Source: a virus (taxonomy: Duplodnaviria; Heunggongvirae; Uroviricota; Caudoviricetes). From it: DNA of 64,000 nt. A model generated the notes under the pieces. The model saw nothing but the letters and a program-made list of their open reading frames with translations, had not been told where the DNA came from and ran no database searches. This document shows, in pieces, positions 21,495 through 22,367 of this stretch (position 1 is the first letter of the stretch; every line of letters begins with the position of its first letter). The stretch lies in IMG/VR virus record IMGVR_UViG_2703718774_000012. One strand, 5' to 3'. The position numbers and the translations under genes are program-made.

Positions 21495-22367
21495 CCTCTC
21501 ACTCCATTATTTAACGAATAAAAAAGCTGCGGTGCCGGGTTCCTCCCGGTGTCCTTTGGCTGGTTATCCACCGTGGACGTGGAAACAAGGAGAAATAATG
21601 GACAGATATAACCATTTCCCCGCGTGCGCTTAGCCGCATTCACCGCAACGGAAAGAGCATTCTTGGTGGACCTGTAGATTGGGATATGAACCCGTTACAG
21701 GAGAATGCTCTTACCTGTTACGTGCTCCGTTTCGTGGAGCTAACGGCGGGTGATCAGACCGCACCAGACTGGACTTATTTCAGCGTTATGCTCATGCCAG
21801 AGAATCAAACTGTGATGGTCGGTGCTGAACTCCGACACAGGGTTGTAGCAAGCCCCGCAAAGCGCGCACTACTGTAGTTGCGGCACATCAGCCTGTGCAT
21901 TCACCACAATGTTGAGAACACTGGTTGTCACGCGGCAACGCAACATTTATTCGTAGATTGGGATATGACCCCGTTACGCCAGTGTTCTCAACGTTGTAGT
22001 TGTTATGCGTATTCTCTTACTAACCGCACACCAATACATTTCCCATCACGTTCATTTGTCTCGAAACGTGAATACTTAAGTTCGCCGTTAATAATCGCTG
22101 TTACAACCCGTATCCCGTTAAACGCCCACATATTTCGCTCCATTTACACACATTACCAGTCGCCGGTTACGGTTCCGGCCAGGCCTCTTCCTCAACGGGG
22201 TGTTCTCCATACGGACTACCGTTTATTGGTCGTTCCTGCGGTTTATGTTGTGAAGCCAGATGCTTATCTTCTGGTTGCTTCTAAGATCTGCACTTCATCA
22301 CAACGGTAAGAGCACTCGATGCATTTAAGCCAGGCCCCATAAGGGAGAATGCTCTTACCTGTTATGT

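Follow-up and report, generated by a model that had tools for sequence, protein, structure and literature searches.

A widespread family of long-stem RNA hairpins in the untranslated ban leader of a P1-like phage-plasmid

Why should a phage carry several long inverted repeats beside its tRNA genes, in a region that has no convincing open reading frame (ORF)? The question is raised by a locus in the window, by which we mean the whole 64,000-nucleotide stretch of the IMG/VR virus record IMGVR_UViG_2703718774_000012. The window is that of a P1-like phage-plasmid (Punavirus), with Escherichia phage vB_EcoM-Ro157c2YLVW as its nearest relative (98.9% identity over 21500-22700), and on its minus strand the hairpin region is the untranslated leader, about 1.8 kb long, of the C1-controlled ban operon. 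A preliminary description had noticed three hairpins here, A, B and C, and had offered processing signals, tRNA remnants or small RNAs as their identity. We conclude with high confidence that these three and a fourth hairpin, D, belong to a widespread, horizontally spread family of long-stem RNA hairpins, apparently undescribed so far, that temperate enterobacterial phages carry in their leaders. As to what they do, the mechanism that we find best supported, and hold to be somewhat better than an even chance, is that A to D are RNase III "punctuation" sites of a transcript made up of tRNA, small RNA (sRNA) and mRNA.

Four hairpins of one covarying family

All four hairpins lie on the minus strand. 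Hairpin A (21645..21721) and hairpin B (21903..22000), whose long stem closes a three-way junction, were delimited by folding and family alignment, hairpin C (22299..22366) by folding and homologues, and hairpin D (22820..22896), a member upstream of tRNA-Asn that had escaped the preliminary description, by a match to the pattern CAACAGGTAAGGGCGCT and folding. The repeat finder recovered the three hairpins first described, where they had been placed, as inverted repeats of 14 nt in A (I2, 21650-21663 with 21702-21715, 93% complementary), 22 nt in B (I1, 21903-21924 with 21979-22000, 91% complementary) and 13 nt in C (I7, 22305-22317 with 22347-22359, 92% complementary). Their folds go well beyond those of shuffled sequences, the minus-strand RNA reaching -31.3 kcal/mol for A (z = -6.6), -46.3 kcal/mol for B (z = -6.6), -32.6 kcal/mol for C (z = -5.8) and -37.9 kcal/mol for D (z = -4.7), and none of 200 shuffles folding as well as A, B or C in each case. 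The stem lengths given before, 10-18 bp, hold for the cores and fall short of the full extent, as each core lies inside an interrupted helix of 19-25 bp with the basal pairing CAYAAC/GUUGYG. After each hairpin the repeat finder placed a direct repeat (D1, GTTGYGRTGAAKGC), the second item that the earlier account lacked.

The family consensus is CACAAC-A-GGUAAGAGCAUUG, followed by a loop of 24-121 nt and by CAGUGCUCUUUCC-GUUGUG, and is built from the 6-bp base, usually a bulged A after CAAC, two G-C pairs, a conserved 1x1 mismatch, which is U·U in 23 of 51 stems, and about ten more pairs. Hairpin D lacks the bulged A because its 3' arm reads CCUGUUG, the stem of hairpin B is a fully compensated variant of the family stem, and hairpin C has homologues with the same loop on covarying stems in four loci (L009, L012, L075 and L100). 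Members were found in P1-like, P22-like, SfV-like, Sasha-like and Klebsiella phages, where their contexts include the late leader from Q to holin in a Klebsiella phage, a unit of promoter, hairpin, spacer and tRNA in Klebsiella phage MK54, Sashavirus, the N-gene leader of a P22-like phage, the late leaders of P22-like prophages right after tR', and the SfV early-left (PL) leader. Unrelated temperate phages share pieces of 50-100 nt with the window leader, in every case within leaders that are untranslated. The IMG/VR scan used the downstream motif GTTGYGGTGAATGYGC alone, so that the hairpin itself was sampled without bias, and the long hairpin of the family stands directly 5' of that motif in 75 of the 115 usable instances. 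Throughout this sample the loops are highly diverse and the stems are kept, a given loop turning up on differing stems and a given stem under differing loops.

Comparison of relatives shows that the stem covaries. Among 51 distinct stems 95.2% of the alignment cells are paired, against 85.5% in column shuffles and 36-61% when the partners are slid, both sides change in 11 of the 18 pairs, and none of 500 shuffles reaches the observed value on any measure; bulged bases were removed according to the fold of each sequence, which makes these pair counts lean towards structure, common descent links many of the sequences, and the six basal pairs had their 3' side set by the search pattern. The cells hold 70 G·U pairs and only 7 A·C, from which it follows that pairing is selected on one strand only, and each of the 25 tRNA genes found within 1.5 kb has the orientation of the hairpins. 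Because of this ratio and this common orientation, the helix is selected on the transcribed strand, that is, in RNA. The earlier suggestion of a non-coding structured RNA on the minus strand is borne out both by the G·U excess and by the plus-strand folds, which are less stable (A -29.6, B -41.9 and C -22.0 kcal/mol). We regard the hairpins with high confidence as a selected RNA structure family. The idea that the loops house tRNA genes was tried and rejected, as none of the 25 tRNAs overlaps a hairpin.

Rfam, searched with gathering and E-value thresholds, has no model for the hairpin family and gave only generic miRNA-hairpin matches, together with STnc100 on a neighbouring segment. If our reading is right, what emerges is a structured-RNA family absent from Rfam that is frequent among the prophages of pathogenic E. 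coli, Shigella, Salmonella and Klebsiella and adjoins known virulence-linked sRNAs (DicF, STnc100/PasD).

Proposed RNase III processing of the leader transcript

We propose a model in which host RNase III would cut both strands of each hairpin mid-stem. The cuts would detach the tRNA-Asn/Tyr/Thr cluster from the downstream RNA at hairpin C, because its base pairing starts 2 nt past the 3' end of tRNA-Thr on the minus strand, a gap that agrees with the adjacency first described; they would fix where each of the STnc100/PasD-like sRNA modules behind the hairpins has its 5' end, and they would free the apical parts as small capped stem-loops. This reading makes the most of one of the identities first suggested, that of processing signals, for which a covarying family and a homologue that coincides with an apparent RNase III site both argue.

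That homologue was reached through the DicF-like modules beside family hairpins, which lead to the dicF region of Qin, a prophage in E. coli K-12. Upstream of dicF, at genome coordinates 1649176-1649256, Qin has a clear member of the family with arms CAUAAC-G-CGAAAGCGCAUGG (5') and CCGUGCGCUUCCG-GUUGUG (3'), the same base helix and equal positions of bulge and mismatch. As in the window, the setting is a prophage polycistronic leader with the DicF sRNA and an STnc100-like module at hand. According to a preprint (bioRxiv 10.1101/2023.04.14.536235, citing Faubladier 1990), a DicF precursor 190 nt long, gone in an rnc mutant, owes its 5' end to RNase III. Counting that published length of 190 nt back from the annotated DicF 3' end leads to position 946 of the Qin locus (L250), in the middle of the 3' arm (939-957) of the Qin hairpin, and the base pairs between the implied staggered cuts, C-G and G-C, fit the in-vivo rule of Altuvia 2018. 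By homology with Qin, the predicted cuts fall between 21708 and 21707 and between 21656 and 21655 in hairpin A, between 21985 and 21984 and between 21917 and 21916 in hairpin B, and between 22352 and 22351 (5' arm) and between 22311 and 22310 (3' arm) in hairpin C, all on the minus strand. The pairs at these presumptive positions are A-U and G-C in hairpins A and C. The Qin hairpin differs from those of the window in its loop and in its place, between ydfC and dicF and not beside tRNAs, and it is our own mapping by length that puts the cut within it.

The stems also resemble what RNase III is known to cut. Its substrates have an intramolecular helix of about 20 bp, two turns with small internal loops allowed, and the window stems have 19-25 paired positions and the consensus at least 18 pairs. 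In metY a tRNA is followed by an RNase III site; indeed rimP-metY is a listed known site and, with DicF, gives a precedent for cuts beside a tRNA or sRNA. The classical stems of the rRNA operon, the T7 R sites, the lambda N leader and metY-rimP-nusA are likewise irregular helices of at least about 20 bp that part stable RNAs from mRNA. Unlike these, the hairpins described here form one sequence family over many unrelated phages, number up to four in a leader and carry hypervariable apical inserts, some of which are conserved.

We infer RNase III as the acting factor with moderate confidence, and several observations weigh against so simple an account. The assignment comes from one homologue, that of Qin, and cutting in P1 and in the window is carried over from it by homology; furthermore, a species sized on a gel at 190 nt is placed on the genome by its length and not through the "813/814" numbering of the paper. 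The primary sequence of the stem is conserved (GGUAAGAGCA), as are the bulged A and the U·U mismatch, and this could reflect a different or an additional binding factor. Some loop types are kept across different stems, among them the loop of hairpin C (in L100) and the initiator-like core discussed below, which implies a function beyond that of a passive cutting site. Finally, the bias towards pairing and the shared descent in the stem alignment bear on this reading as well. A signal that depends on rnc is listed at 1649470 in Table S1 of Gordon 2017, with 26 reads, and lies in the dicF-dicB spacer, in the STnc100-like module and not in the hairpin; it is too weak for use.

If the hairpins are cut as proposed, this may answer a question left by the phage L genome paper (PMC8022706), namely whether the tRNAs of lambdoid late leaders are excised from the operon transcript, and the proposed excision covers the same tRNA-Asn/Thr pair in P1.

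Apical loops and competing explanations

The strongest competitor takes the stems as scaffolds that present or release functional apical RNAs, and it starts from what hairpins A and B have in common. As the preliminary description held, the two have a loop core in common, the direct repeat D3 of 25 nt and 96% identity, at 21674..21698 in A (CCUGUA-AC-GGG-UUCAUAU-CCC-AAUC-UACAGG) and at 21953..21977 in B (CGUA-AC-GGG-GUCAUAU-CCC-AAUC-UACG, which resembles the anticodon arm of an initiator tRNA). Both copies, on the minus strand, fold to one sub-hairpin, stem-AC-GGG-(U/G)UCAUAU-CCC-AAUC-stem, so the GGG-TTCATAT-CCC mini-hairpin once noticed in A is part of a conserved form, GGG-NYCAUAW-CCC. The core GGG-NYCAUAW-CCC-AAUC occurs in at least 120 IMG/VR viral contigs, found with a scan pattern (GGGNNCATANCCCAAYCYAC) that fixed much of the motif, so that its invariance is partly by construction. 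Its commonest form, GGGCUCAUAACCC (76 of 140 instances among the matches listed), is identical over 13 nt to the anticodon stem-loop of the E. coli initiator tRNA metY. The closing stem covaries, with both sides changing in 5 of 7 pairs, these changes coming from few independent lineages around an inner motif fixed by the search pattern. In SfV, SfII, mEp460, cdtI, ST64B and Stx2c phages the core sits inside a family hairpin in the PL leader, with a DicF-like terminator immediately ahead of that hairpin and the first gene behind it, and it is therein among the first RNAs made from the early-left promoter (SfV, mEp460, ST64B and Stx2c phages).

On this evidence the core of A and B would be an initiator-tRNA anticodon mimic that could act as a decoy or competitor for factors that recognise the arm, for instance a VapC/MvpT-type tRNA-fMet nuclease, the 30S P site with initiation factor 3 (IF3), or methionyl-tRNA synthetase (MetRS). 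Other family loops also carry pieces like a T-arm or an anticodon arm, and the elements adjoin phage tRNA arrays. The likeness to tRNA-fMet, three consecutive G-C pairs that close a 7-nt loop YUCAUAW, is nevertheless confined to those 13 nt: no other tRNA feature is present, the conserved AC/AAUC internal loop replaces two further pairs, mismatches stand where a full 5-bp anticodon stem would need pairs, and the window copies, which read UUCAUAU and GUCAUAU, deviate at loop positions 32 and 38. Most family loops, moreover, are not tRNA-like, and a literature search for an initiator-tRNA anticodon mimic of this kind found none described. The scaffold explanation, which is compatible with excision by RNase III, seems to us unlikely as the main function of the family. 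The loops appear, from their sequences, to behave as exchangeable cargo that is partly tRNA-derived, and any role for them is speculative. A fuller scheme would join the two ideas into a modular "display and release" system, in which an RNase III-cut stem would excise small capped RNAs that mimic tRNA parts, the commonest cargo, the one in A and B, being an initiator anticodon mimic made early, from PL- or ban-type promoters, that could decoy tRNA-fMet-targeting host factors or defence nucleases or interfere with translation initiation; this we consider quite unlikely, although early phage transcripts that conserve a copy of the initiator-tRNA anticodon arm would be of interest as carriers of a possible tRNA-mimic decoy.

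The YrlA RNAs, which are found in phages, also have a long closing stem with a tRNA-like apical module. In the family described here there is no Ro60/Rsr context and most loops are not tRNA-like, and the only match to the YrlA model (RF02553) scored 15 bits against a gathering threshold of 69 and fell on a tRNA and not on the hairpins.

A second competitor concerns transcription elongation. The consensus of the rrn boxA region is CACUGCUCUUUAAC and that of the lambda boxA is CGCUCUUA; the 3' arm CAGUGCUCUUUCC agrees with the former at 10 of the first 11 positions and resembles the latter. The hairpins could accordingly be boxA/nut-like or put-like RNAs that confer resistance to Rho or to terminators across the leader, which is exposed to Rho because it is about 1.8 kb long and untranslated. 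Members do stand right after tR'-type terminators and in the SfV-like PL leader, and no N-type antiterminator gene is annotated in the regions examined. Against this, the boxA-like strand is held within a helix of great stability, four copies occur in one leader, the loops are hypervariable, and about one fifth of the unique stems have lost boxA yet stay paired (for example AGCGUCGUUACA, GUGCAAUUAUC and GGCAGCUUUCC). The loop-core motif is also not found in HK022 24000-32000, the segment expected to span the immunity region, the put sites themselves not having been located. Because covarying stems lose boxA, we treat antitermination as a minor and rather improbable rival. As a candidate in its own right, the boxA (NusB-NusE) site was rejected: a sequence of the GCUCUUUA type is present in most 3' arms but is base-paired there, and it is lost in covarying variants.

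The hairpins might instead be functionless, decaying relics of tRNA genes or tRNA cassettes, kept by linkage and recent spread. In their favour, P7, D6 and CMS-2020a have an intact tRNA-Ser where the window differs, Salmonella phage SJ46 is without the segment between the A and B cores, and relaxed ARAGORN gives marginal tRNAs in a few loops (for example in L031). A T-arm motif lies near the 3' side in about one sixth of the IMG/VR loops, and the P1 hairpin after tRNA-Thr, the counterpart of hairpin C, differs in its loop, which holds an anticodon-arm-like hairpin besides a good T-arm, and has a compensated stem (GGUAAGGGUA/UACCCUUACC). Relics would not, however, have stems kept paired by compensatory changes in many lineages, and it also speaks against them that loops recur on different stems and stems with different loops. 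In the window, default ARAGORN found no tRNA in the hairpins, its relaxed and mitochondrial modes found none in A, C and D and made an indeterminate call in B, and the Rfam tRNA model matched none of the four at E<=10; with no cloverleaf by ARAGORN or Rfam, the hairpins were rejected as tRNAs or tRNA pseudogenes. The part of the preliminary description that read the loop of hairpin A as like a tRNA 3' half finds no support, because that loop makes a poor T-loop in which position 58 is not A, and GGG-YUCAUAW-CCC fits instead the metY anticodon loop GGGCUCAUAACCC; the CCACCA tract occurs in hairpin A only, in a register that does not fit an acceptor end. "tRNA remnants" thus describes the loops of some relatives, such as the T-arms of P1 and of several IMG/VR loops, and not the window hairpins, and we hold the relic explanation to be very unlikely.

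Highly improbable, in our judgement, is a role for the inverted repeats as DNA, whether they formed cruciforms, served recombination or bounded cassettes. Modules of 50-100 bp common to unrelated phages make the region a mosaic, its loops look like exchangeable cassettes, and the SJ46 deletion lies between repeated cores; yet the G·U excess and the co-orientation of all 25 nearby tRNAs place the pairing in RNA, and no recombinase gene stands beside the elements in the contexts examined.

There remains the coding reading, since upl and plp are annotated across the hairpin region, on the plus strand, in P1, RCS47 and JL22, and the window has matching ORFs (21686-21877 and 21878-22309). The frames are not conserved as proteins among relatives, and the objection foreseen in the preliminary description, a protein encoded here in homologues, thus does not overturn it. 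Plp of the window, P1 and RCS47 is identical over the first 41 amino acids only, which is the DNA of hairpin B, beyond which indels and frame changes make the three wholly different; plp overlaps tRNA-Thr in P1, and in the window the plp-like ORF would have to start at TTG and runs across an insertion of 161 bp. The start codon of upl falls within the hairpin A loop core and has been taken away by a 13-nt deletion in the close relative vB_EcoM-Ro157c2YLVW, P7 and D6 have tRNA-Ser(UGA) in place of upl, and the homologous segment of a Klebsiella phage has 1-nt and 2-nt indels together with compensatory changes in its small hairpins. No Pfam match above threshold was found. That the region encodes Upl and Plp, with the repeats incidental, is therefore scarcely credible, these long-standing P1 annotations are probably spurious, and the original statement that there is no convincing ORF here was essentially right, with the addition of a lineage-specific minus-strand ORF of 46 amino acids. 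This ORF (22003..22143) lies outside the RNA elements, in the 161-bp insertion, which has no counterpart in P1; it is preceded by a GGAG ribosome-binding site, has no Pfam match and, within the phage collection, is carried only by vB_EcoM-Ro157c2YLVW.

Layout of the leader and neighbouring features

On the minus strand the leader runs from the 3' end of dmt through the C1 operator and Pban, the DicF-like leader with its terminator and hairpin D to tRNA-Asn, tRNA-Tyr, tRNA-Thr and hairpin C, and then through spacer module 1, the 46-amino-acid ORF, hairpin B, spacer module 2, a small-hairpin module and hairpin A to an STnc100-like module with a U tract. The genes that follow encode a membrane protein of 78 amino acids and an SPFH lipoprotein of 275 amino acids, after which come tRNA-Met and ban. 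The leader starts at the C1 operator and Pban promoter region (23280..23296, minus), where the sequence ATTGCTCTAATAAATTT, which we take to agree with the C1 operator consensus, stands at the position of the Oban operators and the P1ban promoter annotated in P1. P1 also annotates a "dicF-like region" at the DicF-like leader segment, and the leader resembles the Qin sequence upstream of dicF. About 170 nt past the promoter this segment is closed by an intrinsic terminator-like hairpin found in the terminator scan (23087..23109, minus). A leader (23110-23270) followed by so strong an intrinsic terminator, downstream of a C1-controlled promoter, implies attenuation or read-through control of the ban operon; we know of no antiterminator for it.

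The tRNA cluster (22368..22614, minus; ARAGORN and Rfam) comprises tRNA-Asn(GUU), tRNA-Tyr(GUA) and tRNA-Thr(UGU), with tRNA-Thr at 22368-22443 by ARAGORN. tRNA-Tyr (22448-22534) stands between the other two and is missing from the P1 reference; the window differs from P1 in its tRNA-Thr and tRNA-Asn alleles, and the same Asn/Tyr/Thr trio is present in CMS-2020a.

The modules between the hairpins, all on the minus strand, are of several kinds. Spacer module 1 (22247..22304, GUUGUGAUGAAG...CUUCACAAC) is a small closed domain with a weak fold (z = -2.3) and is common to Sashavirus phages and the N-gene leader of P22-like phages. Spacer module 2 (21800..21906, GUGGUGAAUGC...CACCGACCAUCAC), which contains repeat D1, is a poorly supported STnc100-type spacer whose fold is no better than that of shuffles (z = +0.5). 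The conserved small-hairpin module (21716..21799) ends in GCUCC-ACGAAAC-GGAGC and is common to Klebsiella and Cronobacter phages; its hairpins covary (GCGG/CCGC with CCAG/CUGG, and GCUCC/GGAGC with GCCAC/GUGGC), and tRNA-Ser(UGA) replaces it in P7, D6 and CMS-2020a.

The STnc100/PasD-like module after hairpin A (21520..21647), recognised by an Rfam match and its fold, has a closing helix UGCGGUG/CACCGCA followed by a U tract and is homologous to the dicF-dicB intergenic region of Qin. Rfam STnc100 (RF02076) matches 21528-21647 with 38.0 bits (E = 2e-6) over model positions 31-147 only, which falls short of the gathering threshold of 47 bits, so that the module is a relative and not a certified member. 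Like STnc100 and PasD, it starts with the same GGUGAAU junction, ends with CACCGGGAGGNACCCGGCACC and lies in the same kind of lambdoid leader location (bioRxiv 10.64898/2026.05.13.724894). The hairpins themselves fall outside the STnc100 model, and through this segment the "small RNAs" of the preliminary description prove partly right. In Stx2 phages the canonical STnc100 comes without a hairpin and has an upstream promoter-like sequence of its own. In seven IMG/VR loci (L084, L034, L051, L056, L092, L103 and L120) a GTTGYGGTGAATG module likewise starts, without a hairpin, a few bases past a consensus-like promoter (TTGACAC...TACATT), from which it follows that an STnc100-type RNA can be either a primary or a processed transcript.

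Some further observations concern variants of the family and its surroundings. In SJ46 (L006, columns 700-1055 of alignment A1) everything between the B and A loop cores is lost and a chimeric hairpin is left, apparently because the two 25-nt repeats recombined, and IMG/VR contigs such as L239 and L157 show the same B/A chimera. In SfV-type elements (L248 2500-2615 and many IMG/VR loci) a GGAGAAA farther downstream is paired with the U tract of the DicF-like terminator; the family stem thereby reaches about 30 bp, and a Shine-Dalgarno-like sequence becomes sequestered. The module CACCAUCCUGGCGAUUCGGUGUGACAGCCGGGAAGAGUCCGGC, which stands directly 5' of family hairpins in IMG/VR loci, is also present in the ban leader past tRNA-Met (20160-20230, minus), where no family hairpin follows it. 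Finally, the Dmt methyltransferase at the head of the leader (23287-26328, minus) has 1013 amino acids in the window against 754 in P1, and carries an intein-like insert (Pfam Hint_2 and LAGLIDADG_3) that apparently lies in the catalytic PC-Q motif of the C5-methylase domain, with the junctions GGTPC/FTAG and VVHN/CQAFS.

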